From the NCBI GenBank assembly GCA_016223205.1, contig JACRPM010000010.1, positions 26,441-90,440 on the forward strand: 64,000 bases of DNA. The letters are read 5' to 3'. Positions within the stretch are counted from its first letter, which is position 1, and every line of letters begins with the position of its first letter. Shown here piece after piece: positions 18,801-53,954 of the stretch. The translations under genes were made by a program, and so were the position numbers. The notes under the pieces were generated by a model that saw only the letters and a program-made list of their open reading frames with translations, did not search any database and was not told the DNA's origin. The stretch comes from Candidatus Saganbacteria bacterium (lineage in GTDB: Bacteria; Margulisbacteria; WOR-1; XYC2-FULL-46-14; WPAF01).

Positions 18801-18885
18801 AACATTCCTCGGCAACGGCATCTATATCTACAAACTGGTGGCAGGCAATCGGGTCATCGGGACGGGAAGGTTGGCGATATTCTAA
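6859..18885 (+). CDS. Giant secreted surface protein (4008 aa): signal peptide, at least 5 right-handed parallel beta-helix modules, about 14 Ig/Fn3-like domains, T9SS-type (Por_Secre_tail / FlgD-Ig-like) C-terminal sorting domain
   Basis: Signal peptide MAKKIGLIILCLILLGTVAQA. Apparent TTG start overlapping the mutS stop. Repeated module ...NPRFVNPDGNDY(R/Q)LFSDSPCKNTASDGGNRGAYAAT..SGITTESYV..GDGTLGNPWKT(V/I)TKGLGSTEGTVYVRAGTY. PbH1-like NN(I/T)I repeats. Repeated PNGGE.W..G....ITW Ig-like domains. C-terminal ...YPTTYNPLTG...MLYMLDISGQVVWTGKY...GIYIYKLVAGNRVIGTGRLAIF. Confidence 0.85.
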   Translation: MAKKIGLIILCLILLGTVAQAADIYVDAVNGDNTRTTAEAQNPATPWKCITVAATGAAVGDTVHVAPGYYLTATGEAFPITITGRYFISTTTGLATIDSGTKIADAIHLGAGATLDGFTVLNAAPSNYYYDIYVPAANAHIRNCTLKQNSTAAQNRVIWVDAGGDRVSIEGNSLTTNTSNTSAVVTFTSGADNPIIRNNIIYGPGSQTTGIDFGTTVAPTVEGNTITVGYSGIVQTGTSTNQNILNNKVIAVGTNNNYGFYVGGTAATSITGTISGNEFRNWNNSAGSSGIRIENTNANYTISKNTLVKNTNGVRVGAGTATVRDNIISAGPRDGTYLSGSTGIYQSGGTITSTYNNLFNNITTYYGTVGSQSNDNTSNPRFVNPDGNDYRLFSDSPCKNTASDGGNRGAYAATDTTSGITTESYVDDGGSDVTGDGTLGNPWRTITKGLGSTEGTVYVRAGTYTAAKGETFPLAIGSGQKLINYLTEAATIDSSTTAINTVNLANNATLEGMTVNNSSNQSAVYLVGPDSQLINSTIYQAGSGGSGAAVYYASDADRCLLEGNTITGGSNSVAALYLLTGVDNPIVRNNTIVEQKTSSAYAIYFGGTSSYPTIEGNTITTGYNGIIQVGICTNQNILNNKIIGTGSNINAGIYFQTNSTGTVASNEVRGWSGTSGAGIYVSGSTANLTLNKNTLVKNTYGVQVTNGTVNIQNCIISAAPRGGTYLSASIGIYRTGGTVTSTYNDLFNNVVNYSGTVGSQSNDITTNPRFVNPDGNDYQLFSDSPCKNTASDGGNRGAYAATGVTSGITTESYVDDGGSDVTGDGTLGNPWKTVTKGLGSTEGTVYVRAGTYNTANGNTLPVSLAAGQTLKGYASEIATVEGNGSNHVVLIGSNATIDNIYLKLTGNYYGVYAGASNVNITRSKIIGNSQGSGIYFDGALTGVTPGGNITTCEVGAVDYGINLYGATSCGNITIEGNTIRDYDIWGIYIYWGQSGASNLVDIKRNILNNCNNASGTSYGGIYAWLHYTGTVNIINNTIVKNSLGIYAYRYSSTLNMNIRNNIISDTPRPDGGPRNGSYGLYKDQALSFISSYNNVWNQRTNFYGVSAGTGDISAYPRFVDPWNNNFDLYSDSPCIGTGSGGANIGAYEGAGAANSPYRTTSYVNNTTGVDAVTSGESVSNPYKTVTFANKYTLGTINVAASSNKYNSTNSETFPIDLGAGGGKRLSGADSGSVTLEGYGTDTHLVPGSSLVYGLGAFTSTTIEGITLQGMGNNTGVYFYGSNPIIQNSIIKGPLAGTGSSGKGVYFDGTNGASTGGTVSTCEITSLDYGIYFTGSTTCGNITIEGNDIHDNYQWGIYHYFWAPTSNANNFIDIKRNLIRNCLNTSTSYGGIYAWTYFVTLNVNRNTIVKNPIGIYAYRYDSYLTLIAKNNIVASEIGGFSVTGSKGILREGGTLTNTYNDVYSNDTNWSGVASGEGSISADALFVNATNNDFHLQQGSPAIDSGTPAGTDMGAYDYSSTTPTVTLGSPNGGETWGAGAWHNITWETTNTPDSINLYYITSEATGYQTIATGISDNGSYPWLVPNRATSTAKVSVEAVKAAETARDESAAYFTITAATNYYVDATNGNNAYSGITSEVSGTNGPWKTLTYASTQAAASSTTHVAAGTYNAALGESFPIAIANLNFISSASPTTLATIDAGSSNCITLGAAGYLAGFDLKSTTTDKVIYVTGASAYIVSNRMATSYSITSNYDIDVADAGDNILIQGNTIDSKRTNNIRLETGADNPIVKDNTLTTAQSYQTGIYVNWVTTRVTVEGNTIVADQGIYLGNSCSNIDIRTNVISPYSADSSAYKGMFLRGTGTVASNEVRGYKNYDTSNTAAIYIYDGTITVRNNTLVNNVVGVGNSYGTATIKNNIISAAPKLNSIYTDYGGGLVNSVGIWGRAGYTTNASYNNVFNNYANYSGSSITRSNELNTCPRFVNPDTNDFRLYYDSPSRATADDGGNRGRYSAIGTSSGITAESYVSTAGNDSTGDGSLSNPWKTVTKAVSSTEGTVYVRAGNFTANETFPLVLTGGQKATRYLTESASIDATGAGAKHTFITGSAATIESLTLTANNTNASYFSIYSLGNTHIKNNTLNAAVSGVYLRANYCTVEGNAITMSGSSGYGVTVHDSGDYSLIQNNSITANASDGRGIRLENYADNITVSGNTVEARAFGMEVASYNNNYNITNNILRGAGVASSYGIYASYVYTGSISSNEVSNFYYGIQADCNSGTSTIWNNTIVNFTTGIYSSNGAAKVIKNNIVSSLPTFPSLPTSGTKGIDHIGGTTTLKNNDIWNNETNYSNTSAGTGDISQNPRFVSAASSDFRLYSDSPCAAGGEGGTYIGRFPALGTTSGITTESYVSVSGNDTTGSGTLTSPWRTVTKGLGSTEGTVYVRAGTYTAGETFPLVLPAGEQLKGYLTEAATIDCTGISGKNTVNLGSNTTLEGLTIINAEGSGAYHTIYAASSGSHIKNNKIYQNGAASGSYALYLTAAADQCSIEGNTIQTGSSNDITVYLSSGANDPIIRNNNLTGTKSSNYVLYFAGTSSSPIIQSNTITGTYFGIYQGGALTNQDLSSNKIIATGSNHVYGIYMGSNSTGIVSTNEVRGWNAYSYSYGIWVGGFSSNLTFNKNTIVKCQTALATGGTANITNNIIAGEIGGFSGSNVKGIDNDSSGTVTSTYNDIYANDITYEGTVSNKTGDLQQNPLFVDAANNDYHLTSTSPAIDAGDPASPHDPDGTRADMGEYYFNQTNDAPSVTLLTPSGGQSLTGGASYNITWAATQPASGVDHVDIYYSTNSGSTYPNLIVAGTSNDGTHPWTVPTINSTTDRVKVIAVSGVGVLGTGESSSDFSITTDSQGPTVEVTSPIGGELWKGGSTHNITFTATDEAGLKANSLYAWYSTNGGSTYPNIITSEAIITSPFVWNIPATINSQTVRVRLNIWDAYNNIGTGESSASFTIDSTPPTVTVLSPTGGDKWQGGTSHDLTWTATDNFTLEANPITLQYSIDAGSSRTDIATGEANDGSYSWTTLSTNTDEARIKVLAQDVCGNIGSAESANFVIDSTAPTAPTLLAPANGSATAESRPQLSWNAAVDSISGISSYEVTIDTNVVTIDATTSYTTPDALSAAAHSWKVKAKNGVGLWGDYSETWTFTTGVGPSAAGIALKDRVYGSTQYSNSLTISLEVHDATGSPTQRRTAQDSAFSVNDTGWLTYATTSEYTFTAGEGSRTAYFKMRDAFQNESGAYNASIVIDTVPPSQVTLLTPANNSYTNDTTPTFTWNAATDATSGVASYEVVIDTTQIATVGAVTTYTTPDAESQGLHNWKARAKDNAQNWGEYSTTWNLTVETTNPTVTLGKPNGGETLASGASYSITWEAADNFGLKTDPVTLNLSTNGGSSWSTIQAGISYVTGEGTYSWTVPSVSSTTCLVSIEVEDNAGNKGYDISNSTFTISNTQPTATVTYPNGGEYLKGATAYNITWIATGEPAPVAINLRYSTNSGSSWTLIASNESNDGTYAWTTPAIDSITDRVSVEAVDGLGRVGTGQSAANFAIDSTTPEVAVVAPSGGERLAGGSSYNIQWTATDTVGLPANPITLRYSTDSGSSWTPIAAAQPNTSPYAWTVPTVNSTTVRVSVEATDRVGFTGTAQSASDFIIDSTTPTVLTVSPTDGATSVSISATVIIVFSKEMSREATQNAFSLSASPAVSGGFSWSGDGKTLTFTPAAALEYNTLYTVAVAAAATDLAGNHLTAFSSSFTTAPRGDSEAPHIIIQRVDAQGVANTLKDGDYIPKQPRFKGVITDNLGVSRATIKFYLDDVETAATITEVSVTRYEVAYTVTSNLEGETVRTHSVKLVASDTAGNSTTQEITGLKVSYESGKVIGPVLTYPTTYNPLTGQPARLAYNLTADQDVMLYMLDISGQVVWTGKYPSGAEGGKAGYNEILFYGRSEISGTFLGNGIYIYKLVAGNRVIGTGRLAIF

Positions 18886-35789: not shown

Positions 35790-35858
35790 ATGACCATGCC
35801 AAAGACCATCGTCATCATGCCCGCCTATAACGCCGAGAAGATATTAAAAAATGAATAA
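35790..35858 (+). pseudogene. Orphan 5' fragment of the GT2 glycosyltransferase gene (MTMPKTIVIMPAYNAEKILKNE*), displaced by insertion of the DUF1016 gene
   Basis: 33 nt TCGTCATCATGCCCGCCTATAACGCCGAGAAGA are identical at 35808-35840 and 36887-36919. The fragment carries the ATG start and first 17 codons of the gene that continues at 36872. Confidence 0.55.
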
Positions 35859-36879
35859 AAAAATCAGCAAAGAGAGCAAGTATCATAAACTGATAGATTC
35901 GATTGGGGCGCTTCTGCAACAGGCGCGACAAAAAGCGTTTCAGCAGATTAATAATTTAATCGTGAAAACCTATTGGGAAATCGGCAGGTATATAGTAGTT
36001 TATGAGCAGGAAAACAAGGTTAAAGCGGAATATGGCTCGAAATTGCTGGACAAAATCGCTTATGATCTGAAAGGGAGATACGGGAAGGGTTTTAGCCGAA
36101 GCAATGTCGTATACATGAGATTGCTGTATCTTAAATACCCCAAAAGTCAGACACTGTCTGACCAATTGAGCTGGAGTCATTACGTTGAGCTGTTGGGGGT
36201 TTCAGATGATCTGGCTCGCTCTTTTTATGAAAAAGAATGTCTTGTTAACCGCTGGAGCGTAAGAGAGCTGGAAAGACAAATTAATTCTATGCTTTTTGAG
36301 CGTCTGGCACTAAGCAAAGACAAGCAAGGCGTGCTGGCGCTGGCTGCCAAGGGCCACAAAATAGAGAAAGCCGAGGACGTAGTCAAAAACCCATATATTC
36401 TGGAATTTCTGGGTATACCGGAAGATTATCGCTATTCCGAAAAAGAGCTCGAACAAAAAGTCATCGATAATATGCAAAACTTCTTGCTTGAGCTGGGTAA
36501 AGGATTTACTTTCGTGGCGCGCCAGTATCGCCTCACATTAAACAATAAGCATTTCCATGTTGACCTGGTTTTTTATCATCGGATTTTGAAATGCTTTGTT
36601 TTGATCGATCTAAAACTGGGAGCGATTACCCATTATGATATAGGGCAAATGAATATGTATCTAAATTATTTCAAGAAAGAAGAAATGGCCGAAGATGATA
36701 ATGAGCCGATAGGTATTGTTTTAGGCGCCGAGAAGAAGCATATTTTGGTTGAATATGCTTTAGGCGGAATTTCCAACAAACTTTTCGCTTCAAAATACCA
36801 GCTATCACTGCCCAACAAATATCTTTTGCAGAAAGCGGTCGAAAATATTATAACTCGCGAGAAAAAACACCGTGCTTAA
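35851..36879 (+). CDS. PDDEXK-nuclease-fold protein, DUF1016 / YhcG family
   Basis: 342 aa. Core FHVDLVFYHRILKCFVLIDLKLG (D...D/ExK-like) typical of YhcG. Lies inside a roughly 1.05 kb insertion bounded by the 33-bp direct repeats. Confidence 0.7.
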   Translation: MNKKISKESKYHKLIDSIGALLQQARQKAFQQINNLIVKTYWEIGRYIVVYEQENKVKAEYGSKLLDKIAYDLKGRYGKGFSRSNVVYMRLLYLKYPKSQTLSDQLSWSHYVELLGVSDDLARSFYEKECLVNRWSVRELERQINSMLFERLALSKDKQGVLALAAKGHKIEKAEDVVKNPYILEFLGIPEDYRYSEKELEQKVIDNMQNFLLELGKGFTFVARQYRLTLNNKHFHVDLVFYHRILKCFVLIDLKLGAITHYDIGQMNMYLNYFKKEEMAEDDNEPIGIVLGAEKKHILVEYALGGISNKLFASKYQLSLPNKYLLQKAVENIITREKKHRA

Positions 36880-37573
36880 AACAGTCGTCATCATGCCCGC
36901 CTATAACGCCGAGAAGACACTGGAAAAGACCTACCGGGATATCCCCAAGGACCAGGTCTCCGAGATCATTTTGGGGGATGATTGTTCACAGGACAAAACA
37001 ATTGAAATCGCCGAAAAGTTGGGCATTCGCGTCCTTAAAACCCCGCACAACCTGGGTTACGGCGGCAACCAGAAAATGCTGTATCGGGAAGCCCTCAAGA
37101 GGGGAGCGGATGTGATCGTGATGGTGCATCCCGACTGGCAGTACGATGCCACTAAAATTCCGGAGATGGTCGCGCCCATTGCGGCCGGAGAAAAAGACGT
37201 TATGATGGGCTCGAGGGTGCTGGGCGGGGGGACGCTGGCGGGGGGCATGCCCATCTGGAAATACATCAGCAACCGCTTCCTCACCTGGTGTGAGAATATG
37301 ACTTTTCGTCTTGATCTTTCCGAATACCACACCGGCTTCCGCGCTTTTTCCCGCAAGGTATTGGAAACCATCCCTTTTGAGAAGAATTCCAACGATTTTG
37401 TCTTTGACACCGAGGTTCTGGCGGAGGCGGCCCGGAAAAAATTCAGGGCCGGGGAGATCGCAGTACCCTGCCGCTATTTTTCCGAGGCCTCGGAGATCAA
37501 TTTTGTCCGCAGTTCGGTCTACGGTCTGCAGACCTTATGGGTATGTCTTAAGTATTGGTTGAATCTCATATGA
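36872..37573 (+). CDS. Family 2 glycosyltransferase (polyprenyl-phosphate sugar transferase-like)
   Basis: VVIMPAYNAEKTL...GDDCSQDKT GT-A DxD context. 233 aa. The current GTG start lies inside the inserted DUF1016 element. Confidence 0.8.
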   Translation: MLKTVVIMPAYNAEKTLEKTYRDIPKDQVSEIILGDDCSQDKTIEIAEKLGIRVLKTPHNLGYGGNQKMLYREALKRGADVIVMVHPDWQYDATKIPEMVAPIAAGEKDVMMGSRVLGGGTLAGGMPIWKYISNRFLTWCENMTFRLDLSEYHTGFRAFSRKVLETIPFEKNSNDFVFDTEVLAEAARKKFRAGEIAVPCRYFSEASEINFVRSSVYGLQTLWVCLKYWLNLI

Positions 37574-40725: not shown

Positions 40726-42191
40726 GTTTTCTTTTCCCCCTCAACTACATTATACCCTTCACCGGCGGTCTCGCCGATCACGTTCAGGTCGTGGCGGATG
40801 GCGTCGGTGATCACCCAATCGCAGACCTTAAGTATCATGCGCGGCACACCCTGGCTCATCTTATAAATATTCTCGACCGATTCCGGGGTGAACGGCTTAA
40901 GGCCGGTTCCTCCCGAGTTCTCGATCCTCTTTTGCATCATCTCTTCGGTCTCCTTAACGGAGAGATGCTCCAAGGTCACTTCCAAAATAATGCGGTCGTA
41001 AAATGGAGCGCTCACGCACTTGATCTTGTCCGAGGTCTCCAGTAATCCTGCCAGCACAAAATTTACCCCATTTAGGTCGCCCAGGGTGCGGAGCGGCCGC
41101 TCGAATTCGGCCGAGAACTCATGGGCTTCGTCGAGAAACAATAGGATGTTCTTCTGGGTGGTGCTGGCCAGGGATTCCAGATCGTAGATGGTGAACCGGC
41201 GGTCCTTGGGCTTTTTCAATTTGAGCGATGCGGCCAAGAATTCCAGCAAGTCGTCGAAATTATCGGTGGGGCGGGGGATATAGATAGTATGATAATCGTC
41301 TTTGAGCTTGTCGGCCAGCCACTTGAGCAGGGTGGTCTTGCCTACGCCCTTATTGCCGCAAACCAGGACATGTCCGCTTTTAAGGCAGATCTTCTCAAGG
41401 ATATTCTGCACCTGGGTCTGGTAACCGGTAAAAAGATTGGGTAGGATATCCAGGGTAAAGGGATTGCGCTTCCAGCCGAACTTGGCGTACCACTTGCGCT
41501 GGGCCGCGGTGACCCCGGTCCAGGGCTTGAGCCGCGCGCCGCACTTGGCGCAAAATTCGGCCGCTCCGGGATTGGACCACTTGCATTCGGTGCAGATCTG
41601 CAGTTTTTTCTTTTCCAGATAATCCCGGATATTGGTGTAAGTTATGCGGATAAGCAGAAGAAGGGTCAGGACCGATACCACTCCCATCCACAAGGATATT
41701 TGCTGGATCAGATTTGCGGTAACGGCGGTTGCGGCGGGTGGTTTCTGCGGCCTAAAAAGCGGCGCCCTGGGCTCCTCTTTTTGGGGTTCTTCCTTTTTGG
41801 GCTTGGGCAGGGTAGGAGGCAGAACCTGTCTTAAGCTGGGGAAGGCGGGTTTTTCCTGTACTTTGGGTGGAGGCGGGGGAGGAGCGGCCGGTCCCATCTC
41901 CTTTTTGATCTCATTTTGCAGTTCCATGGCCCGGGTGTGGTTGGGATCGAGCTTCAGCGCCTCGCCCAGGTCCTTAAGGGCGCCTTCGTTATCGCCCAGG
42001 AAGTATTTATTTACCGCGCGGTCGTAGTGGTCGTCTGCGCTTTGGGCGTATCCGGGAGCTTGAAAGCTAATCATCAAAAAACAAACAACAAAAAACAAAC
42101 AAATACCAATATCCATTATCCAATATTTAAATTGAGATTTGGAATTTTGAAATTGTTTGTTATTTGTCATTTGTAATTTATTATTTTTCAT
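40722..42191 (-). CDS. Membrane-anchored TPR / Pro-rich linker / TM / zinc-ribbon / AAA+ ATPase (ExeA/GspA-like)
   Basis: N-terminal TM helix plus TPR (ALKDLGEALKLDPNHTRAMEL). PPPPPPP linker. Second TM helix. CTECK...CAKCG zinc ribbon. Walker A CGNKGVGKTTLLKW and Walker B LLFLDEAHE. Confidence 0.6.
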   Translation of the reverse strand: MKNNKLQMTNNKQFQNSKSQFKYWIMDIGICLFFVVCFLMISFQAPGYAQSADDHYDRAVNKYFLGDNEGALKDLGEALKLDPNHTRAMELQNEIKKEMGPAAPPPPPPKVQEKPAFPSLRQVLPPTLPKPKKEEPQKEEPRAPLFRPQKPPAATAVTANLIQQISLWMGVVSVLTLLLLIRITYTNIRDYLEKKKLQICTECKWSNPGAAEFCAKCGARLKPWTGVTAAQRKWYAKFGWKRNPFTLDILPNLFTGYQTQVQNILEKICLKSGHVLVCGNKGVGKTTLLKWLADKLKDDYHTIYIPRPTDNFDDLLEFLAASLKLKKPKDRRFTIYDLESLASTTQKNILLFLDEAHEFSAEFERPLRTLGDLNGVNFVLAGLLETSDKIKCVSAPFYDRIILEVTLEHLSVKETEEMMQKRIENSGGTGLKPFTPESVENIYKMSQGVPRMILKVCDWVITDAIRHDLNVIGETAGEGYNVVEGEKKT

Positions 42192-43645
42192 TACTTCTTC
42201 TCCAATTTCATGATCAATTGCAGTTTTTTCTGCAGGGCCTGGGCCTGTTTGTTTTTGGGATCCTTGGAGAGCGAGGCATCCACCTGCTCCAGGGCTTCCT
42301 TGTACTTGCCGGTCACCACCAGCTTCAGGGCTTCGCCCAAAAAGCTGCGGGCCTGCTCCTGGCTCTGCTCGATAAGCTGGCTCTCCATTTTGGTCTGGGC
42401 CTCGCTTTGGAGCCGCAGGGCCTCACGGTTGGTGGGCTCGATCCTCAAGGCCTTGCTGAATTCCGCCAGGGCCTCCAAATACTTGCCCTGGGATAAAAAT
42501 CCCTTGCCGGAAGACATTATATCATTGATATCGCGTTTGATCTCAACCGCCAGTTCTGCGAAGACCTTCTCAAAGGCCTCTCTTTCGAGCTCGGCCTGGG
42601 CTTTTTTCAGGAGTATCAGGCCTTCTTCGTTCTTGGGGTCGAGGGTGTTAACCTTTTCAAATCTTATAACCGCATCGGAATATTTTTTCTTATCAAGATA
42701 GGCCTTGCCCAGCGCCAGGTTATCCAAGATGAGCTTCTTGGACTTATCTTCGGCGCCGAAAAGCAGGCTGATGCTCACCTGGTGCGCGGCTCCCAGATCG
42801 GCGTGGCCCAGGTAAGCGTAGTCGAAGGCGAAGAGATTGGCATACAGGCCCAGCCCGGCGCGCAAAGTCCCGCCCGCCGAACCCACTCTTATGGCCAAGA
42901 AATTGCGGATCAAATATTCGGCCCCCAAATTGATCCGCAGGCCTTCGGGGAAAGACACCAGATCGGAATTAAGATTGATATTTTCATCGAAAAGCCGGGT
43001 GGCGAAGGCCGCCCCCAGGCGGTAAGAAGCGGGGAGAGGCGTGTTTTCGGTGACGAATTTTAAGGGGGAGCCCAGATTAAGCGCCGAAACCCCCAGGCAA
43101 AACTGGGAATTGACGCGGTAAGCCAAGCCGCCGTCCAGGGCGAAGGTGGAAGCGGAGCTCCCTTCCAATTTTTCCGAGATCGATTTTACCCCCAAACCGA
43201 ACGAGAGGTTGGGGGTTATCCTTCTGCCCAGGGAAAGATTGATACTGCTGTGAGCGGTGTTAAAGGTGGAGGTTACCGCTCCGGTATTATCGTATCCTTG
43301 TATATCTCCTGAAGATAAGCCCGAATAGCCGATCCCCAGCACCCCGAAATTAACCGGGTACGCGGCTCCCACGATCATCTGGCTGGCGCCGACGAAGTGG
43401 CTGTTGTACAGGCTCAAGACCTCGGGGAAATTAAGCTGGGCCAGGCCCGCCGGGTTATAATACATGGCTGAAATGTCATCCGCTTGCGCTACATAGGCCT
43501 CGCCCATCCCCAAAGGTCTGGCTCCACCGCCTAAGCGGAGAAAATCAGCGCCGGAACTGGAACCAACGCCCGCCTCCGATGGAATAACCAATGAACAAGC
43601 TACAAAAGACAAACAAATAATAAATATCAATTTCCAATTTCTCAT
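42191..43645 (-). CDS. FadL/OmpP1-family (PorV-like) outer-membrane beta-barrel with C-terminal TPR repeats
   Basis: Signal peptide. Motif GGGARPLGMGEAYVAQADDISAMYYNPAGLA. C-terminal 150 aa TPR-like (YLDKKKYSDAVIRFEKVNTLDPKNEEG...). Start overlaps the stop of the upstream cargo gene by 4 nt. Confidence 0.55.
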   Translation of the reverse strand: MRNWKLIFIICLSFVACSLVIPSEAGVGSSSGADFLRLGGGARPLGMGEAYVAQADDISAMYYNPAGLAQLNFPEVLSLYNSHFVGASQMIVGAAYPVNFGVLGIGYSGLSSGDIQGYDNTGAVTSTFNTAHSSINLSLGRRITPNLSFGLGVKSISEKLEGSSASTFALDGGLAYRVNSQFCLGVSALNLGSPLKFVTENTPLPASYRLGAAFATRLFDENINLNSDLVSFPEGLRINLGAEYLIRNFLAIRVGSAGGTLRAGLGLYANLFAFDYAYLGHADLGAAHQVSISLLFGAEDKSKKLILDNLALGKAYLDKKKYSDAVIRFEKVNTLDPKNEEGLILLKKAQAELEREAFEKVFAELAVEIKRDINDIMSSGKGFLSQGKYLEALAEFSKALRIEPTNREALRLQSEAQTKMESQLIEQSQEQARSFLGEALKLVVTGKYKEALEQVDASLSKDPKNKQAQALQKKLQLIMKLEKK

Positions 43646-46600
43646 CTAATTATCACTAATTTGCCTAATTTTTGATCGGTGGCGCTCTTAATAGCATAAA
43701 AATACAAGCCACTCACCACATTTTCTCCCGCGTCGTTTTTGACGTCCCACGCGTTCTGCCCGTCGCCGTCGGATTCATTGATGGTCTTGACCGCATCTCC
43801 GCTCACGGTGAAGATCTTGATGGTGCACTGGGAAGCCAGGTTGGTGAAAGTTATGGTGGTGTGGCCCAGGCCGGAATTGGGTTTAAAAGGATTGGGATAA
43901 GCGTAAGCGATCGACAGGTCGTTGGCCGGCGTGGCCATGGCGGTGAAAGTCGAAAAGCTTTTAACCGGGGCGGATACCAGCTTGGTGGAGGTGTCTACCA
44001 CGCAGCCTGGGACTCTAACCCAGAGTTGACTGGTTTCATTTAAACGATAATTGAGCAGGGCCGAGACCCTGGCCGGCGGAGTCACGTTATCAACGTAGCC
44101 GTCGTTGTTGTCGTCGCGATAGGGGAGGTAAATGGTCGCGTCGCTTTGGAGTTGATCGGTTATGCGAGTTCCCGAAGTATTGTAAACCACGAATTCCCTC
44201 ACATCGCCGGAGATGGGATGCCGGAAAGTGTTGCCTTCTCCCGCGATCTTGGTGGTGGCCGCGGTGATATTTGCCGGGGTTACCACGATGGGATCGCTTT
44301 CCGGATTGGTGCTGATCCTTACATAAAAATCCTGGTTATAGGCGTTGGCCGGGATCACCACTTTGGTCTTGCCGTCGTCGGCGATAACCGTTAAAGAGGC
44401 GGTATGATCCAATATTGTCTCAAATGATGCGCTGAAAGTCGTAGCCAGATGGTCGCCCACCAGATCGGCGGCTTCGGTGGAAACCGTAGCCTGATAAGTA
44501 TAGTTCTTGGTCAAGTTGGAAGTGGGAGTGAAGGTAACGGTGGTTCCCGACCAGGAATACGTCCCATCGATCTGGGTATTGAGGGTATTGCCGTCTTTGT
44601 CCCGGATAGCTTTAAGCCGCAGGGCATTTTCCACCGACGACTGGTTCATAGTTTCGGAGAAGGTGACCCTAACGGTTTCCGATGTGGCCACGCCCACTGC
44701 CAGGTCGGCAGGGGAGACGCTCGTTATAGTTGGTGTTGCCTCGGCGGTTATATTAAAAGTATTGGAGGTAGCCGAAGTTAAGCCGGTAGCGGAGGCGACC
44801 AGGGTGTAGCCGTTCCCGGCATTGTTGATGCTTAGGTTGGAAAAAGAAGCAACGCCGGATGATACGGTCTTGCTGGTGGTGCCGGAAAGTGTTCCGCTCC
44901 CTGGATTGGTGCCGATGGCAAGCGAAACGCTGGTGGTGTTATCGCTGGCCAGCAAATTGCCGTATTGATCTTGCACCTCAACACTCACCGAAGGCGACAT
45001 CGTCACTCCCGCTTCGGTGGTTGAGGGCTGAACGCTGTACGCGACCTTGCTGGCGGGGGCCGAGGCCCAGGCGGCATATCTATAAGTGATGCCGTTAGCA
45101 TTGGTCGCTAATCCTGCTGCGGCGCCCGAGCCGATCTGAAAACCATCGGATTGCAGGGCCTGGATAAGGTCGGAAGCATTGGCGGTATTGGTAAAATATT
45201 GTGCGTTATCGCCCGAAAGCGAGGAGTTCCGGAAGACGGCGTTGGTATTAGCCGTTCCTTCGGGTCTTTTTATCAATAATAATCCGGGAATAAAGCCCAC
45301 GCCGGTGATGTTGCGGTTATCGGTCGCATTTCCCACATAAGTGCTTTCTTTGAATTGGTCGGTTGTGGCTTTAAATGCGAAATAGTGGTAAAGATTGGCT
45401 GCGGTATTGGCCTGCGCGTTGGTCCCGACTTGAAAGCCGGTGGTTTCGAGGGCCTGAATTACATCCGCCGTGTCAGCAGTGACGGAGAAGTAAGCGGTAT
45501 TATCGCCTGCGATCGAAGCGGTGCGGAAAACACCTAAGCTGGCGCCGTCCCTCTTTATCGCCACAATGTCTGGGGTAAAGTCCAGGGCAGGGATTGAGCG
45601 ATTGTCGCCGACCCCGACACCGGTGCTCGTGCCGGTATAAGAGCCCACCACAAAGTTAGTAGAGCCCGAATTGCCGAAAGCTGTCCAGCGGTAAGTGATA
45701 CCGACGGTATTGACCGCAGCATTAGCTCCTATATTAAAACCAGTGCCGGTCAAAGATGTTATCCCGTCCGAAAAATTAGCGGCGGCATTGGCCAGATAGG
45801 CGGTGGAATCAGGCGTCATCTTGGAGGTTGCGAATACTCCGTAGCCCGCGGCGGTATCGGATTTCACGATCACCAGGTCCGGTCGGAAGCCCACCGAGGT
45901 GATCGACATGCTGGTGCCGTTGCCCAAATAAGATCCACTGGACATAGTGAAAGTGTTGGTAGGCGCAGTAGAAGTAACACCCCGAAAAGCCGCAAAATAA
46001 TAAGTGCTGGCGGCGGCATTTACCCGGGCATTGGTCCCGACTTGGAATCCGGCGGCCTCCAAAGTTTGGATGTGATCGACGGCGTTAGCGGTGGCAGTGA
46101 AGATCTGGCTCTCGTCACCGTAATTCTGGTTGCTGCGCAAAACCGCGGCACTGGCGGCGGCGGATTGCTTGACGAACACGAAATCCGGCTTAAAGGCGGT
46201 CTTGCTGATGGAGCGGTTATCCGTCCCGTCGCCCGTATAGCTTTCAACCGACATGCTTTCGGACGTCTTGAAGGCGACATAATAGTAAGTTGCACCGGTA
46301 GAATTTACTTCTGCATTGGCGCCTACCTGGAATCCATCCGCCTGCAAGGCCTGGATGCGGTCTGCGGCAGGAGCAGTAGCTGAAAAATAATGGCTGTTAT
46401 CCGCTCCCATGGAAGAGGTGTACCAGACCCCCAGGTAAGCCCCGTCCCGCTTGGTCCAAACCAAGTTGGGCTGGAAGCCGACCCCAGTAATATTGCGGTC
46501 ATCACTGCCATTGCCGGTATAAGAACCGATTTTTAGATTAACCCCCGTGCTGCTGCGGAACGCGATCCAGACATAGCGCGTATTGCTGACCGAATTGACA

Positions 46601-46955: not shown

Positions 46956-47137
46956 AGCAAACAGTGTGCTAAGACGGAACCTGCGACTAAACGTCGCGGT
47001 TCCTTAAATCTATTGATTTTAATCAGGAAACCGCGAAGTTCATTCGCGGGTTTCCTGATTTCTCATGTCATTTTTTCTGTTAACCACTGCAAGGAAAAAT
47101 AATTAATTATCGTTTACTATTTGGCACACTGTTTGCT
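46956..47137. repeat. Structured intergenic element: 14-nt long-range inverted repeat AGCAAACAGTGTGC/GCACACTGTTTGCT enclosing two GC-clamped hairpins (46976-47003 and 47024-47057)
   Basis: Hairpins GGAACCTGCGAC-TAAAC-GTCGCGGTTCC and CAGGAAACCGCGAA-GTTCA-TTCGCGGGTTTCCTG. Lies downstream of the OmpM-like gene and upstream of the cargo-operon promoter. Probably a terminator/insulator or a MITE-like element. Confidence 0.4.
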
Positions 47138-48538: not shown

Positions 48539-49544
48539 TGGGATCTTGCAGGTCCCGGATTATCTCCACCACTTTTTCGGGGTCCTGGGTGACCTGGCCG
48601 ACCTTTGCCGCCTCCACAAAACGCACATTGCCCTCCTCCTGGCCGGGCAGCCAGGAGGTGATGATGATGGGCAGGTTCATGGCCAGGGCTTCGGCGATCG
48701 ATCCCGGCCCGGCCTTGGTGATGATGAGATCCGATTGGGACATGATCTGCGGCACCTGGTCGGTAAAACCGTAGACCTTGAGGGGGAAGCCGAAATTCGG
48801 GGCTTCGGCCTTTAGCTTTTCTTCCAGTTTTTGGTTTCTTCCGCAGATCACGATCAGCTGGACTTTTAGTTTGGCCAGGTCGATGGCCTGGATTATCTCA
48901 TACATGCCGCCCGCGCCTTCGCCTCCGCCCATCAAGAGCACCGTGAACTTATGCGGGGTCTTCTTTTTTTGCGGGCCTTTGGCAAAGCGGGGGTCGATCG
49001 GCATGCCTTCCACTTTTATCTTTTTTACCGGCATACCGTACTTAACAGCCAGCTTTTTGGCTTCTTCCGTAGCTACCAGGCAAAGGTCGACCTTGGGGGT
49101 GATCCAGGCCCGGTGCAGGGTCACCGGGTCCATCACCACCACGATAAAGGGGATCTTAAGGCCGCTGTCGGCAATAGCCTGCGCGGTCAAATGGTTCACC
49201 AGGGGATGGACCGAAACGATCGCATCGGGCTTGGTCTTTTTTATTAACTTGGTCAGGTCTTTGAGGATAAAGGGTCGGGAGATCGCCTCCAGCTGTTCTA
49301 ATTTCTTTTCGTCATCCAGAAAGTAATAAAGCATTCCCCACATCCGGGGAGAGAATTTTATCACCGGCGCGTAAAGCCGGGCGAAGATGTTCAAGAACCC
49401 GCTGCACTCGGCAAAGACATCCACCATTTCCTGCTCGAATTTACCGGGCTTGAGACCTTCGACCGCATTCATCAGGGCCTTGGCCCCGGAGCGGTGCCCC
49501 CCGCCGGTATCCGAGAACAGGTAGAGGATCTTCTTTTTCATCAA
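48447..49544 (-). CDS. GT28-family diacylglycerol glycosyltransferase (MGDG synthase / UgtP-like)
   Basis: N-terminal LYLFSDTGGGHRSGAKAL, characteristic of MGDG/processive DAG glucosyltransferases. 365 aa. Confidence 0.7.
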   Translation of the reverse strand: MMKKKILYLFSDTGGGHRSGAKALMNAVEGLKPGKFEQEMVDVFAECSGFLNIFARLYAPVIKFSPRMWGMLYYFLDDEKKLEQLEAISRPFILKDLTKLIKKTKPDAIVSVHPLVNHLTAQAIADSGLKIPFIVVVMDPVTLHRAWITPKVDLCLVATEEAKKLAVKYGMPVKKIKVEGMPIDPRFAKGPQKKKTPHKFTVLLMGGGEGAGGMYEIIQAIDLAKLKVQLIVICGRNQKLEEKLKAEAPNFGFPLKVYGFTDQVPQIMSQSDLIITKAGPGSIAEALAMNLPIIITSWLPGQEEGNVRFVEAAKVGQVTQDPEKVVEIIRDLQDPNEYKKIQKNIERARKPHAAFDIAADIIKYL

Positions 49545-50455
49545 GTGGTGGCCTTAACGGTGAGCTCGAGGCCCCGGGCCATGTCGACGGTCGGCTGCCA
49601 GCCGAGTTCCTTCTTGATCTTTTCGGCGTTCAGGACACTGCGGAAGAGTTCCCCGGCGCGGGGTGGGGCATAGACCACGGACCCCTTGAATTTCATGATC
49701 TTTTTTAAGTGGTCGAACAATTCGTTGACCGAAGTGCCGATGCCGGTGCCTACATTATATATGCCGTTGTCACCCTTGGTTAAAGCGGTTAGGTTGGCCT
49801 GGCATACGTCCTTAACATAAACATAATCGCGCAATTGCTTGCCATCGCCGAAGATGGTGGGATTTTCTCCCTTGGCTAGCTTTCCAATAAAAATAGCGAT
49901 CACTCCGGCCTCGCCCAGGGGATCCTGCCGCGGGCCGTAGACGTTGCCGTAGCGCAGGACGGTGAACTTTATCCCGTAGGTGACATGATAGAAATACAGG
50001 TACATCTCGGTTGCTTTCTTGGTGACGGCATAGGGGGAAATGGGCTCGAGTTTATGGTCCTCATCGGCGCCTTCCTTTTCGGGGATCTCGCCGTAAAGCG
50101 CGCCGCCGGTCGAAGAAAATACTATCTTTTTAACTTTAGCTTTTACCGCGGCGTCCAAGAGATTTATCGCGCCCAAAACGTTCACCTCTTCGGTAAAAGC
50201 CGGGTCCGCCACGGATTTCCTTACATCTATCTGGGCGGCCAGGTGATTTATGATCTCGGGCTTAAAATCCAACAGGATATCGGCGACCTTTTTATCCCGG
50301 ATATCGATCTGATAGAACTTCGCTATGGGGTTGAGATTTTCTTTTTTCCCGGTTATAAGATTGTCGAGGATGGCGACCTCATGTCCCGCCTCGATATAAG
50401 CATCCACGATGTTACTGCCGATGAATCCCGCGCCGCCGGTCACTAGAATTTTCAA
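49541..50455 (-). CDS. NAD-dependent sugar epimerase/dehydratase (GalE/WcaG-like SDR)
   Basis: MKILVTGGAGFIGSN Rossmann motif. YxxxK catalytic context (YAVTKKATE). 304 aa. A 4-nt overlap with the MGDG synthase gene. Confidence 0.85.
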   Translation of the reverse strand: MKILVTGGAGFIGSNIVDAYIEAGHEVAILDNLITGKKENLNPIAKFYQIDIRDKKVADILLDFKPEIINHLAAQIDVRKSVADPAFTEEVNVLGAINLLDAAVKAKVKKIVFSSTGGALYGEIPEKEGADEDHKLEPISPYAVTKKATEMYLYFYHVTYGIKFTVLRYGNVYGPRQDPLGEAGVIAIFIGKLAKGENPTIFGDGKQLRDYVYVKDVCQANLTALTKGDNGIYNVGTGIGTSVNELFDHLKKIMKFKGSVVYAPPRAGELFRSVLNAEKIKKELGWQPTVDMARGLELTVKATT

Positions 50456-50485: not shown

Positions 50486-50639
50486 GGTAAATAGGGGAGA
50501 GGGAATGGGGAAGGGGAGAGCACGGAACTTAGAACATAGGGTAAGATCCCTGTGCTCTGTGTTCAGTGCCTGCCTGCCGGCAGGCAGGTTCCGTGCTCCG
50601 TGTTCATTTTTCCCTCACTCTTCACGATTTACTATTTCC
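50486..50639. repeat. Element A: ~150-nt imperfect palindromic repeat with GAACTTAGAACA submotifs and an internal perfect 20-nt palindrome CCTGCCTGCCGGCAGGCAGG (50569-50588)
   Basis: Left end GGTAAATAGGGGAGAGGGAATGGGGAAGG. Right end TTCCGTGCTCCGTGTTCA...CACGATTTACTATTTCC. 11-nt inverted repeat GAGCACGGAAC/GTTCCGTGCTC. Homologous to element C (52341-52499) and partially to element B (51081-51144). Confidence 0.6.
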
Positions 50640-50729
50640 AGTTTTTCTTATTATTGAGCCAAATACTAATTTTGCAGAAGATTGGCATACTAATTGCTAG
50701 GGTGGTGGTTAGGAAGGGAGGTGAAAGAA

Positions 50730-51080
50730 ATGTTCATATTTGAGAATTTGGAGGCCTACAAAAAGGCGGTTGCCCTTGCCAAGAAAATATTCTCCGCAAA
50801 TCGAAGGATTAAGGACCGAACCATCAAGGATCAACTTTGCCGCGCAGTCCTTTCTGTCCCGCTAAACATTGCGGAGGGGCAAGGGCGATACCACCAAAAA
50901 GAAAAGCGGCAATTTTACTGCACGGCAAAGGGTTCACTATACGAAAGTCTGCCGCTGGTGCAACTGTGTTTCGAGCTACAGTATTTCGATATGGCACAAT
51001 ACGAAGAAATATATGGTCTGATGAATGAGATAGGGCGAGTTTTGTCGGGGCTTATAAGATCAGTGAAGGGGGAGGAGTGA
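50730..51080 (+). CDS. Four-helix-bundle protein (23S rRNA intervening-sequence protein family, TIGR02436; Avd-like)
   Basis: MFIFENLEAYKKAVALAKKIF...LCRAVLSVPLNIAEGQGRYHQKEKRQFYCTAKGSLYESLPLVQLCFELQYF matches the 4HB / IVS-protein pattern. GGAGGTG ribosome-binding site 7 nt upstream. Track ORF starts at 50694. Confidence 0.75.
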   Translation: MFIFENLEAYKKAVALAKKIFSANRRIKDRTIKDQLCRAVLSVPLNIAEGQGRYHQKEKRQFYCTAKGSLYESLPLVQLCFELQYFDMAQYEEIYGLMNEIGRVLSGLIRSVKGEE

Positions 51081-51144
51081 ATAGCGAAGGTTAGAACACA
51101 GAACTTAGAACACGGAACTTGGAGCATAGGGCGGAATCGCTATT
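51081..51144. repeat. Element B: short hairpin repeat with tandem AGAACAC(A/G)GAACTT units, between the convergent 4HB and FHA genes
   Basis: AATAGCGAAGG...GAATCGCTATT stem enclosing TTAGAACACAGAACTTAGAACACGGAACTTGGAGCATAGGG. Probable bidirectional terminator. Shares submotifs with elements A and C. Confidence 0.5.
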
Positions 51145-52248
51145 TTAATCTTCTTTAGGTGTGGCCTCGGGCAAAGCCGGCGCGCTCATGGCCTCAATTA
51201 ATTGATTTCTGACCGCCTGTGCTTTTAAACTATCAGCCTTCTCCAAAAGCCCCAGAAAACGATCTCTTTCCGCGGGATTTCTGACTGCTAATAATCTGGC
51301 AATTTCTCGCACATCAAATTGAAATAATATATGGCAAATACTATCATCTAATTTTCTGTGAGCCGCTTTGTTTGAAGATCGGTAGCTTGCCAATGAGCCA
51401 GCGGCACCGCCAATAAAACCACCAATACAAACTAAAGTCGAAATGGGAAAAAGTAAGCCCATTATTCCCCAGCCTACTCCAGAACCTAATAGAGTTTGAA
51501 TAAACGTATTTCTCCAGTCGCGCCGGATTTTATCTTTTCTTTCTAGATAAATAGTGAGAAGTTCATCTGTCGTTCTTGCTTCCGCAAAATCAGTCCCTTC
51601 GATCAGAGATGGATCGATTCGCTTGGTAACTGTCAACCCTTGTTCGGCAATAAAGGTTTGAACTATCGCCAATTGTTCCTGTCGAGCTTGAGCTACTTCC
51701 GGCGTGACCTCTTCAATGGGCGGACGGGTGGCTAAAAGCAGACGGACATCTTCACCGATTTCTTTGGCGGTTTCTAATTGTATCTCCAGATATCTGCCGT
51801 TTTTACCAGGAATAGCACCGCTTAAGTGCAGAACCAACCGTGCGCCCTCGGGTATTAAGCTGCCTTCGAGATTCTTGTCGGTTGGAACAGTTATGGGCCG
51901 GCCGTTCGGCTTAAGGAGGGTAATCGGCTTGTCGGAATAATTTAGGATGCGGAAACTTTTACCCTGCTGATGAATGATCTGCGCATGGTTTAAGTCAATC
52001 TGCGGATCATTGATCCGGATTTCACAGCTTCGATCGCGACCTATGGAGATCGAACCGCCTACGGGAAGATAAATCTTCTGGCCGCCGATATGCAGGGTGG
52101 CTGCGATATTCGCGTTCATCTGGGGATTTAAAAACTGGTTCCGAACCCTTACCCGCACCTCCCCGCCGCCCCTGGCCTCCGCGTTGAATCCAATGTACCT
52201 TTCTCTGACCGCTGTTCTGACCGCTCTAACCGCTCTAACTATTCCCAT
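51145..52248 (-). CDS. FHA-domain protein with C-terminal glycine-zipper transmembrane region
   Basis: FHA core SISIGRDRSCEIRINDPQIDLNHAQIIHQQGKSFRILNYSD...NGRPI. C-terminal LLGSGVGWGIMGLLFPISTLVCIGGFIGGAAGSLASY. Real start is probably MNANIAATL (52119). The 5' extension is a 9-mer tandem repeat (GTTAGAGCG)x2. Confidence 0.55.
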   Translation of the reverse strand: MGIVRAVRAVRTAVRERYIGFNAEARGGGEVRVRVRNQFLNPQMNANIAATLHIGGQKIYLPVGGSISIGRDRSCEIRINDPQIDLNHAQIIHQQGKSFRILNYSDKPITLLKPNGRPITVPTDKNLEGSLIPEGARLVLHLSGAIPGKNGRYLEIQLETAKEIGEDVRLLLATRPPIEEVTPEVAQARQEQLAIVQTFIAEQGLTVTKRIDPSLIEGTDFAEARTTDELLTIYLERKDKIRRDWRNTFIQTLLGSGVGWGIMGLLFPISTLVCIGGFIGGAAGSLASYRSSNKAAHRKLDDSICHILFQFDVREIARLLAVRNPAERDRFLGLLEKADSLKAQAVRNQLIEAMSAPALPEATPKED

Positions 52249-52340
52249 TGATGTCCCTCCTAGAGGATCTGCTTTCCTATGTATATATCGTTAAAAACGA
52301 GGCCGGATTTCACTTATTAAGGGATATTTTTAGAATTGAT

Positions 52341-52499
52341 TAAATAGGGAGGAGTAAATTGGGAAGGTTAGAACACAGAACTTAGAGCACCGAACTTAGA
52401 ACACAGGGCGGAATCCCTCCCTGTGCTCCGTGCTCCGTGTTCTGTGTTCCGTGCTCCATGTTCTTTCCGTCCCTCTCCACTATTCCCTATTTACTATCC
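52341..52499. repeat. Element C: ~160-nt imperfect palindromic repeat (long hairpin) with tandem GAACTTAGAACAC units
   Basis: Left arm GGAAGGTTAGAACACAGAACTTAGAGCACCGAACTTAGAACACAGGG. Right arm CCCTGTGCTCCGTGCTCCGTGTTCTGTGTTCCGTGCTCCATGTTCTTTCC. Termini TAAATAGGGAGGAG / CCCTCTCCACTATTCCCTATTTACTATCC are homologous to the element A termini. Confidence 0.6.
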
Positions 52500-53954
52500 G
52501 TTAAAACGATATTTTAATATCTCAGTATCGCTCTCATCGACCTCGATCAGGTGATAAGGAAAGAAAACGTGGGTGTCGGATTCGCGGATGGCCAGTTCCT
52601 GGAGCTTGACCTCCAGGTTGATGTCCGCGGGGATCACCTTTAGCAGGTTTTTGGATCCACCGCTGTTCATGGGCTGGGCCCAGTTCTCGATTATCCGGCC
52701 GATGGTCTCGCGCTTTCCCGCCAGCTCCTCGCCGAATTCGGTCAAGATCGCGAGCAGCGGCTTGCCCAGGCGGGCCTCTTTTAAAAGATTGATCGAGCCC
52801 AGCATGCCCAGGTGCTGATTCAATAATTTTCCTTCTTCCTTTTCCACCGAGCCGATATTTAAAAGCAGGACCTGGCACTCGGAATATTCCCGGCCCAATC
52901 CTTCCACAAAGCGCGAATCCCCCGTGATGCCGATGTGGAGCCGTTCACCGTTCTTCAAGACCAGGTTGGTATCGAGCACCAAGCCCACGGAAGATTCCTG
53001 ATTGGTCCAGCGCTCGGTGTGGTAGGCGGGCTTCACATGGATATGAAAGCCGTATTTTTCCATCAGGGACTGGTTCTCGATCTCCGCCACCCGGTTGCCG
53101 GGCACCAGCAGTTTGAAATTTATCTCCTTGTTGCCGAACAGGTCGGTGGCGGAAAGCAGGCCGTGGAATTTCAAAAGCACTCCGGACGAGCCGAAAATAT
53201 CCAGGACTTTGCTCTTTTTTTCCTGGTTGTGATCGTTGTATTTGGCCAAAAGCGAAAGTATCCCCTCCACCGATTCGGTGTGGTCGTCGTGGTCGTGGGT
53301 GATGATGATGGCGTCGATATCGGCGATGCCCAGCCCCAGCCCGCGAAAGATATCGAAAAAATCATAGCCGGGATCGATGGCGATGCCCTTTACTTCCCCT
53401 CTCCCGTTCCGCAAGGTTAAAAAGTACCCTCCGCCCTGGGAGAGCCCGTGGGAGAATAGGGGAGAGGCGGAGTTCCACTTGTGGATGGTGCGCAGGACGT
53501 TGGCTCCCATCTTGTATTCCACCTGGCGGGGAGCGTTCAGCTCCCTGATCAGTTGGGCCTGGTTCTTTTTTATGATTTCCCGCGTGGGGAAAATGGTCTC
53601 GTCCATGTAGTTAATAGCACGGGTGGCGGAGGAGCCGAGGTTCTTCATATGCAGGTCGTACTGGCGCGCCAGCCGGAAATCCTCGTAAGCCTCGCGGAAG
53701 CGCCCCTGCAGAAAGCGACTGATGCCGCGATTGTAGGCCGGCAGCCCCACATTGCCATGCTTTTTCTGCATCAGGCGGAAAAGCGCGTCGAATACCGCCT
53801 CGGCTTCTTTATAAAGATTTCGGTCTATTAAAGCGTGGCCGAGCTGTTCCCACTTCGCCGGATCGTTCTCATTGAGGGATTTGAGAAGTTCTGGAAAGCT
53901 CTTAAAGCCGCCAAGTAAGTCCTGCAATTTGTGTCCTATTAAAATTTCCGCCAA
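52494..53954 (-). CDS. MBL-fold metallo-hydrolase with N-terminal TPR-like region
   Basis: Metal-binding IIITHDHDDHTESVEG (HxHxDH variant). 486 aa. Confidence 0.7.
   Translation of the reverse strand: MAEILIGHKLQDLLGGFKSFPELLKSLNENDPAKWEQLGHALIDRNLYKEAEAVFDALFRLMQKKHGNVGLPAYNRGISRFLQGRFREAYEDFRLARQYDLHMKNLGSSATRAINYMDETIFPTREIIKKNQAQLIRELNAPRQVEYKMGANVLRTIHKWNSASPLFSHGLSQGGGYFLTLRNGRGEVKGIAIDPGYDFFDIFRGLGLGIADIDAIIITHDHDDHTESVEGILSLLAKYNDHNQEKKSKVLDIFGSSGVLLKFHGLLSATDLFGNKEINFKLLVPGNRVAEIENQSLMEKYGFHIHVKPAYHTERWTNQESSVGLVLDTNLVLKNGERLHIGITGDSRFVEGLGREYSECQVLLLNIGSVEKEEGKLLNQHLGMLGSINLLKEARLGKPLLAILTEFGEELAGKRETIGRIIENWAQPMNSGGSKNLLKVIPADINLEVKLQELAIRESDTHVFFPYHLIEVDESDTEILKYRFNG

Follow-up and report, generated by a model that had tools for sequence, protein, structure and literature searches.

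Between the genes for an MBL-fold/TPR protein and an NAD-dependent epimerase, the Candidatus Saganbacteria DNA analysed here (the window, the whole stretch of 64 kb, to which all genome-level copy counts refer) carries an insertion of about 2 kb that lies antisense in the gene row and whose constant part is hairpin-IVP-hairpin. IVP is used throughout as the name of the PF05635/TIGR02436 four-helix-bundle protein. Three parts make up the conserved module: a promoter of sigma-54 type, the IVP gene itself and, downstream of the gene, a hairpin of tandem heptamers; often a further hairpin stands upstream. The second gene of the insertion, which codes for an FHA-domain protein, is lineage-specific cargo and not in the conserved module. 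Most free-standing PF05635 genes in the samples studied are flanked on both sides by short tandem repeats, mostly of 7 nt, in inverted arrays, so that the open reading frame (ORF) comes to lie in the loop of an approximately 30-bp stem; the hairpins of the window are the form that this general feature takes in the lineage. Relative and metagenomic loci retrieved for comparison, roughly 190 in all, carry L-numbers (L021, L086, L090, L092 and so on). The insertion and its borders comprise the following features.

49541-50455, minus strand: gene for the NAD-dependent epimerase (domain match), a host gene flanking the insertion; it directly follows the MBL gene in L186, where the site is empty.
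50486-50639, plus strand: hairpin A, an imperfect palindrome of about 150 nt, recognised by its fold and its homology to hairpin C; 5′ of the predicted IVP promoter.
50569-50588: nested perfect 20-nt palindrome CCTGCCTGCCGGCAGGCAGG (exact), an insertion in the 3′ arm of A relative to C.
50683-50698, plus strand: sigma-54-type promoter TGGCAT-N5-TTGCT (−24 GG/−12 GC), 32 nt 5′ of the IVP start codon.
50717-50721, plus strand: ribosome-binding site GGAGG, 8 nt 5′ of the ATG and kept in the seven-locus upstream alignment.
50730-51080, plus strand: IVP gene for a four-helix-bundle protein of 116 amino acids (PF05635/TIGR02436), from profile matches and predicted structure.
51064-51141, plus strand: element B, the 5′ arm and loop start of a C-type hairpin, overlapping the last IVP codons.
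51145-52248, minus strand: cargo gene for an FHA-domain protein of 367 amino acids (FHA match, E 9e-6).
52272-52300, plus strand: degenerate copy of the 3′ terminus of C and the MBL gene end (TTTCCTATGTATATATCGTTAAAAACGA), from its alignment score of 22.
52341-52499, plus strand: hairpin C, a complete heptamer hairpin of about 150 nt, recognised by its fold; its 3′ end overlaps the MBL stop codon.
52494-53954, minus strand: gene for the MBL-fold/TPR protein (domain match), the other host gene flanking the insertion.

Hairpins A and C align over their full length and share the termini TAAATAGGG.../...CCTATTTACTAT as well as GAACTTAGAACAY units, which bears out the preliminary description of this DNA as containing two homologous long hairpins with conserved ends. 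Both fold significantly. On the plus strand, the minimum free energy of the RNA is −79.9 kcal/mol for A (z −6.7) and −65.8 kcal/mol for C (z −7.2); on the minus strand, it is −60.8 kcal/mol for A and −76.0 kcal/mol for C (z −9.1 for C). None of 200 shuffled sequences matched the folding of either. The ends form a terminal inverted repeat, TAAATAGGG...CCCTATTTA, of an element of about 150 nt. Tandem units are present as previously described, but the arms are arrays of 7-nt units and not just 13-mers: GAACACA, GAACTTA and GAGCACG on the 5′ side, TGTGTTC and CGTGCTC on the 3′ side, with the GAACTTA units giving small internal loops at regular spacing in the stems. Hairpin A runs from a G-rich outer 5′ arm through GAGCACG/GAACTTA/GAACATA units and an apical stem-loop to the complementary TGTGCTC/TGTGTTC units. 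Self-matching at lag 7 (19 of 28 positions in B, 24 of 28 in C) reflects tandem units of period 7. The sequence GAACTTAGAACAC occurs seven times in 64 kb at up to two mismatches (0.83 expected), with five of the seven within A, B or C, and a blastn search of the window with the three elements shows no further copy outside 50486-52499. Since A and C are homologous, the 5′ arm of A is also complementary to the 3′ arm of C (15 nt at 93%, 19 nt at 89%). Orthologues of both hairpins are present in L092 and L090, and among the three orthologues of A, six base pairs have changed on both sides with pairing kept.

Element B is, as described before, a shorter relative of these hairpins; it corresponds to the 5′ arm of C only (88% identity over 72 nt, 52347-52418), the homology stops inside the apical loop, and B alone has no significant fold (z −0.1). 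The local alignment score of the degenerate copy at 52272-52300 was equalled by 5 of 500 shuffles, and this segment may, tentatively, be a remnant of the hairpin to which B belonged. As B stops in an apical loop and a C-like 3′ terminus lies upstream of the FHA gene, we tentatively place the FHA cargo inside a second, damaged hairpin copy. The perfect palindrome reported in A is indeed exact. Near-copies lie at hairpin junctions of L090. The 12-nt core CCTGCCGGCAGG of the palindrome has a single copy in the window and so is no dispersed repeat there. Another hairpin of heptamer arrays, whose units are different and AT-rich (AACAAAC.../...TTTGTTA), is found at 42065-42199 at the junction of two minus-strand genes. 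It folds with z −3.7 on the plus and −4.3 on the minus strand, has no IVP gene near it and is related to an array at 43583-43652.

The IVP protein matches PF05635 with E 5e-26 and 91.4 bits (cut-off 33.8) and TIGR02436 with 87.6 bits (cut-off 24). The AlphaFold2 monomer (pLDDT 95.8) consists of four long helices and resembles 2gsc (Xcc0516, TM-score 0.92), 2rld (BT_0352, 0.84) and the Avd structures 4dwl/8ub7 (about 0.76). In the 100 nt 5′ of the IVP start codons at seven loci, TG(G/C)CA-N5-ATTGC supplies the only invariant columns. The −24/−12 GG/GC signature TGGCAC-N5-TTGCW is the consensus of sigma-54 promoters. Chance would give 0.24 matches to a sigma-54-type pattern in 64 kb; there are two. 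Among the related loci, the pattern stands before the IVP gene in L090-L095, L176-L177 and L179-L183; L178 has a TGCCA variant that escapes it, and the roughly 190 retrieved loci contain only five matches besides. On this sequence pattern, transcription of IVP in vivo would be sigma-54-dependent. The other match in the window (47122-47137, plus strand, TGGCACACTGTTTGCT) is near consensus and intergenic; it lies before an SLH-domain gene on the opposite strand and would drive an antisense or unannotated transcript. In a consensus scan, sigma-70 promoters and intrinsic terminators were no more frequent than in shuffled sequence.

Comparison with related genomes shows that the module has been inserted. 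In L186/L187 the row Yip1, a 403-amino-acid protein, MBL, epimerase, MGDG synthase and SLH is entirely co-oriented, the MBL protein is 72% identical, and the junction of the MBL and epimerase genes measures 100 nt only, with neither IVP gene nor heptamer hairpin. L092, with an IVP protein 92% identical, has the order epimerase, hairpin A, IVP, one complete hairpin, MBL; the complete hairpin stands at the position of B in the window, and there is no FHA gene. In L090 (IVP 96% identical) the IVP gene is followed by a truncated stub, a 242-amino-acid gene unrelated to FHA and hairpin C. The GC content is about 45% in the putative element and about 54% in the flanks. Together with the site in the window, the module occupies five different genomic sites in Margulis/Saganbacteria. 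The further four hold IVP homologues at 59-69% identity and are these.

DUF362/PALP junction (L094).
SNase/tRNA junction (L176).
Radical-SAM/tRNA junction (L178/L021).
The site shared by L179-L183.

All four have a downstream hairpin of GARCAYN-type heptamers, L094 and L178 have an upstream hairpin as well, and L178/L021 have two intact downstream hairpins in tandem. The hairpins of the related loci all fold significantly (z −2.3 to −10.9). The empty junction and the homologous modules at four other sites uphold the earlier view that gene and hairpins behave as an inserted element resembling an intervening sequence (IVS). As a unit, the 1.7-kb cassette of that description does not survive, given the absence of the FHA gene from L092 and the unrelated gene in its place in L090. 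L179 and L180 (3340-6357) share their IVP gene, and their sequences are the same throughout the 560 nt compared downstream of it (3340-3900). Farther on, the called genes differ, with a HEPN-like gene in one contig and, in the other, a gene for a 270-amino-acid protein and a phage-integrase/AAA gene. In these loci no gene is called for about 1 kb 3′ of IVP, and the region beyond the module is variable here again. In L176 (3440-3540) and L178/L021 (3585-3760), the module abuts opposite-strand tRNA-like genes, recognised by eye. Rfam places tRNA genes 1-3 kb from IVP in L101, L107 and L116 and within a few hundred nucleotides in L157.

The FHA gene is regarded as variable cargo because it is absent in L092 and swapped for an unrelated gene in L090; the two cargo proteins show no homology. 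It is convergent with the IVP gene, and its product has, in addition to the FHA domain, a glycine-rich hydrophobic segment near residues 250-290, in agreement with the previous naming of the two genes as four-helix-bundle and FHA-transmembrane genes. The family is rare: a word-indexed search with the protein returned only itself, entered at NCBI under Candidatus Saganbacteria, and about 20 full-length remote relatives were found among 1.8 billion representatives. The one genomic context retrieved, that of the best homologue, contains neither IVP gene nor heptamer hairpin. In that locus (L192), one motif of about 60 nt (ATATAGAGAGAC.TTTGCTCTCCGCAA...GGGGAGC...CGCTCCCTTAATTTTAGAT) occurs at 1-100 and again at 1290-1385, before two consecutive genes, the FHA homologue among them. 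The motif may serve as a regulatory leader, here repeated. PADLOC gave no match for the IVP protein, the FHA protein or the L090 cargo, and a defence system was ruled out for want of any.

The association of IVP genes with arrays extends well beyond this lineage. A metagenome sample of 80 loci, with 30-51% identity to the IVP protein of the window, was collected using an alignment of 40 IVP proteins as query. Arrays were scored as period 7 when at least 19 of 28 positions matched at lag 7 within 150 nt of the gene, and a gene's own upstream and downstream flanks as complementary when at least 17 of 21 positions paired. Period-7 arrays were present upstream of 61% and downstream of 51% of the genes, against 1.7% of 1265 windows drawn from these loci as controls; about 10% of flanks had period 8 and 4% had period 6. 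The flanks of 74% of 73 genes were complementary (2% for mismatched pairs, 12% in direct orientation). The units vary by locus (AGTACCA, GGTTAGC, GGAGGCA, GATGTCA, AGTGGTT and GGGACTA, for example). The enclosing stem has a median length of 29.5 bp, and the upstream arm ends a median of 34 nt before the start codon. Counted from the first base of the stop codon, the downstream arm starts a median of 12 nt on, and the stop codon often falls within the first unit. The arms have a fixed polarity, with G exceeding C on the coding strand of the upstream arm in 45 of 52 stems (p 7e-8); the hairpins of the window share it. Similarity of the arms between loci tracks protein identity (Mantel p 0.002), which could be explained by host ancestry. 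Most of the genes lie inside gene rows; of 58 upstream neighbours, 46 point the same way as the IVP gene, and the median gap is 80 nt. The family had been described as normally encoded in 23S rRNA intervening sequences; that does not hold in this sample, where rRNA genes contain none of the 80 loci and a single locus follows closely on a large-subunit rRNA. In L137 (1-2605), the IVP gene is found about 200 nt past the 3′ end of a large-subunit rRNA gene that contains a group I intron.

These frequencies were replicated with 40 IMG/VR genes, where arrays of period 6-8 stood upstream of 74% and downstream of 48% and the flanks of 69% were complementary. Arrays were also seen by eye at four plasmid loci, in Nostoc sp. 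ATCC 53789, Calothrix brevissima NIES-22, Nostoc edaphicum (where the IVP gene lies between nrdB and nrdA) and Gemmatirosa. L086 (5100-5600) has a stop-interrupted IVP gene between ORFs that are carA-like and eno-like, as named from sequence only. Its arrays, GTTCTAA upstream and TTAGAAC downstream, are the units of the window hairpins, but they form a single stem around the ORF. A scan of GTDB-representative genomes with GARCAYNGAACTTAGARCAY gave 87 loci, against about 69 expected by chance for random sequence by our own estimate; they are mostly real heptamer arrays. Arrays of the type in the window occur in many phyla, 84 of the 87 without and 3 with an IVP gene in the same 8 kb.

The closest known counterpart is the ORF-bearing IVS of 23S rRNA genes, as in Leptospira and Coxiella burnetii; such IVSs are the only relatives known to have been studied by experiment. 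In Coxiella, the S23p ORF is surrounded by a terminal stem of 28 bp, which RNase III cleaves in vitro; ORF-bearing IVSs have a patchy distribution and are suspected to be mobile, with no mobility enzyme known, and the S23p proteins are annotated "four helix bundle protein" or "S23 ribosomal protein" without known function (PMC4990558). The module shares with them the PF05635 protein, insertion inside a transcription unit and patchy distribution and, in the wider family, termini that pair into a long stem around the ORF. It differs in having a set of adjacent protein-coding genes as host; neither an Rfam nor a tRNA scan gave a match in the window, rRNA included. It differs further in that each flank in the window has its own hairpin of 7-nt tandem units, in that the gene has its own sigma-54-type promoter and is antisense to its neighbours, and in that cleavage by RNase III is only proposed here. 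Our best reading is that the module would work like an ORF-bearing IVS while, being outside rRNA, it is not a member of that class.

The anatomy, the insertion polymorphism, the promoter conservation and the IVP-array association in three samples are established by the data above. For RNA cleavage or insulation and for the route of cargo capture, we infer the following. An IVS-like IVP module would have been inserted, antisense, between the MBL and epimerase genes, its downstream hairpin being represented in the window by B and C. The FHA-transmembrane gene would be later cargo that entered the apical loop of one downstream hairpin copy, either by landing there or by recombination. In transcripts, the arrays would form long double-stranded RNA, which may set the inserted gene apart from the transcription unit around it by RNase III-type cleavage or by termination and insulation, with the logic of the excision of ORF-bearing IVSs from 23S rRNA. 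RNA isolation is suggested because free-standing IVP genes share the IVS topology and lie inside transcription units. At the DNA level, palindromic arrays would be unstable and recombinogenic, which would account for gain and loss of units, duplication and truncation of hairpins and capture of cargo. To this combined model of RNA-level processing or insulation and recombinogenic palindromes, we give about an even chance of being correct.

Several observations weigh against it. If the predicted sigma-54 site is the start point, hairpin A would be outside the IVP mRNA and only the downstream hairpin would be cotranscribed. The covariation in the hairpins is based on three sequences only. The hairpins are without U-tracts, and terminators were not in excess in the consensus scan. 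The mismatches in 56 long-range stems have no strand bias (69 of G-U type, 66 of A-C type); as long selection in sense RNA would favour G-U, this weighs against a stem that acts in the sense RNA. Moreover, the flanks in the window form local hairpins and not a single stem around the ORF.

The balanced mismatch counts would fit arrays that act as DNA, A and C being terminal inverted repeats or palindromes resembling miniature inverted-repeat transposable elements (MITEs) of a non-autonomous transposon; a transposase or recombinase with its gene elsewhere would move IVP and at times cargo too, with the RNA structures incidental. The presence/absence polymorphism, the differing insertion sites, the terminal inverted repeat TAAATAGGG...CCCTATTTA, the tandem and truncated hairpins with cargo turnover at the hairpin, and the lower GC content of the insertion all fit such an element. 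With MITEs and with repetitive extragenic palindromes (REP) and bacterial interspersed mosaic elements (BIMEs), the hairpins share a size of about 150 nt, terminal inverted repeats and tandem and truncated copies. However, unlike these, they are not dispersed in 64 kb (A and C have no other copy there), stand always beside an IVP gene in related genomes and have arms of tandem heptamers; no cognate transposase or REP-associated transposase was seen, and a domain scan of a subset of ORFs between 31 and 64 kb revealed no transposase or integrase. The arms differ between loci, so that no single transposase could recognise all of them, and their G-rich/C-rich polarity is fixed relative to the ORF, which is not expected of plain inverted repeats. 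No target-site duplication can be defined, the sole empty site, L186, being too diverged for alignment at the junction. We consider a purely DNA-level element unlikely. The imperfect palindromes between ORFs also recall attC-like hairpins of an integron-type cassette array, and the Avd-like fold with a weak match to the Avd profile recalls a component or remnant of a diversity-generating retroelement (DGR), as had been suggested for this gene. Such an origin is extremely improbable. The match to the Avd equivalog NF033474 is 25.5 bits against a cut-off of 80, the ORFs scanned include no reverse transcriptase or integrase, and the window has no template/variable repeat pair. Its direct repeats of at least 45 nt are surface-protein domain repeats, two heptamer-rich stretches (42069-43652), hairpin arms and a 59-nt pair at 35.8/36.9 kb, and none of the template/variable type adjoins the IVP gene. 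On these grounds a DGR is effectively ruled out for the window, and the likeness to Avd is one of fold; an integron is ruled out by the lack of integrase in the ORFs scanned and of RYYYAAC/GTTRRRY core sites in A to C, and the two genes face each other, unlike integron cassettes.

Alternatively, the arrays could be binding sites, with an IVP pentamer holding heptamers in RNA or single-stranded DNA, one unit per subunit, as operators for autoregulation or for action across the genome. The tight, orientation-specific association of array and gene, the typical arm length of about 4-5 units, the tracking of protein similarity by arm type and the fold, that of ring-forming relatives including Avd, are consistent with this, as are widespread heptamer arrays without a nearby IVP gene, which is where trans targets would be found. 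Avd is a nucleic-acid-binding protein. Against binding, the heptamer sequence varies greatly while the protein motif Q..R...S...NIAEG stays constant, some loci have period 6 or 8, and the correlation of arm with protein may mirror host phylogeny only; we regard it as quite unlikely. It is very unlikely that the hairpins are ordinary punctuation, that is, bidirectional terminators or mRNA stabilisers typical of the lineage, with IVP an ordinary resident gene. A downstream hairpin does lie between IVP and a convergent gene or tRNA gene in L092, L094, L176 and L178, which speaks for punctuation. Yet the U-tracts of terminators are missing, the other genes of the window lack such hairpins save at 42065-42199 (with a different unit), the empty site in L186 has no hairpin, and in the three samples that link IVP with arrays, these bracket the ORF rather than trail it. 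The combined model of RNA-level isolation and recombinogenic palindromes is preferred here to these four.

Heptameric tandem repeats were described around 1990, and the units ACTGGGG (L132) and CAGTTAC (L103) that flank IVP genes we take to be the short tandemly repeated repetitive (STRR) sequence STRR1 and the reverse complement of TAACTGA. Such repeats, the cyanobacterial STRR and the TAACTGA repeats of Beggiatoaceae, Cyanobacteria and Bacteroidetes, are abundant and of unexplained function (PMC4679880). The IVP arrays resemble them as short intergenic 7-nt tandem arrays beside start and stop codons in many phyla. They differ from them as described, being inverted pairs around one gene family; PMC4679880 describes direct repeats, and the terms '23S', 'S23', 'helix bundle' and 'intervening' do not occur in it. 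The location of IVP genes also has precedents. Genes annotated 23S_rRNA_IVP lie inside cas operons, for example, between cmr3 and cmr2, and were interpreted as CRISPR-associated (Zhang, Doak and Ye 2013, PMC3936711); the passages on these genes do not mention flanking repeats. Two CRISPR surveys list 23S_rRNA_IVP as CRISPR- or cas-linked (PMC10910872, PMC3936711). Like these genes, the IVP genes studied here are wedged between adjacent genes (MBL and epimerase in the window, nrdB and nrdA in Nostoc edaphicum, carA-like and eno-like in L086), and tandem arrays beside IVP together with insertion into operons might contribute to the reported CRISPR link. In the searchable full-text literature, with subscription literature outside the search, no paper links PF05635, S23p or the four-helix-bundle protein with heptamer repeats. 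The association of IVP with inverted arrays is, in that literature, undescribed and merits an independent survey.

Other parts of the window touch the module less directly. The MBL-fold/TPR gene is conserved widely among Margulis/Saganbacteria sequences, and the nearest homologues of the IVP protein and of the adjoining MBL gene are named Candidatus Saganbacteria, Margulisbacteria or WOR-1. Positions 6775-18885 form one ORF of 4036 codons with several internal repeat families at 60-88% identity, which accounts for most long direct repeats of the window and probably encodes a giant surface protein. A gene for a DUF1016/YhcG PD-(D/E)XK nuclease (35848-36879) lies between 59-nt direct repeats (35793-35851 and 36869-36927) that are 83% identical and code for the N-terminal sequence M/V..T.VIMPAYNAEK. 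The arrangement suggests that insertion of the nuclease gene at the 5′ end of the next gene duplicated the start of the latter.

The S23p proteins and the heptamer repeats are two long-standing orphans. If the regularity described here holds, the 23S IVS would be a special case of a general insertion module, the presence of IVP genes inside cas, nrd and other operons would be explained, and cultured organisms such as Nostoc and Calothrix would be available for direct tests of RNA processing and of the binding of repeats by the protein. For annotation, the module marks a site at which unrelated cargo genes are gained and lost. A doubtful but more far-reaching proposal is that PF05635 genes and heptamer repeats of the STRR type are two halves of one system, in which the ring protein would recognise the heptamers and the module would spread horizontally. 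As its corollary, held with the same doubt, the module would colonise operons, plasmids, phage-like contigs and rRNA genes across bacterial phyla. Were these two halves to belong together, a function would be found for a protein family that has been without one since 1993, and for the heptamer repeats.

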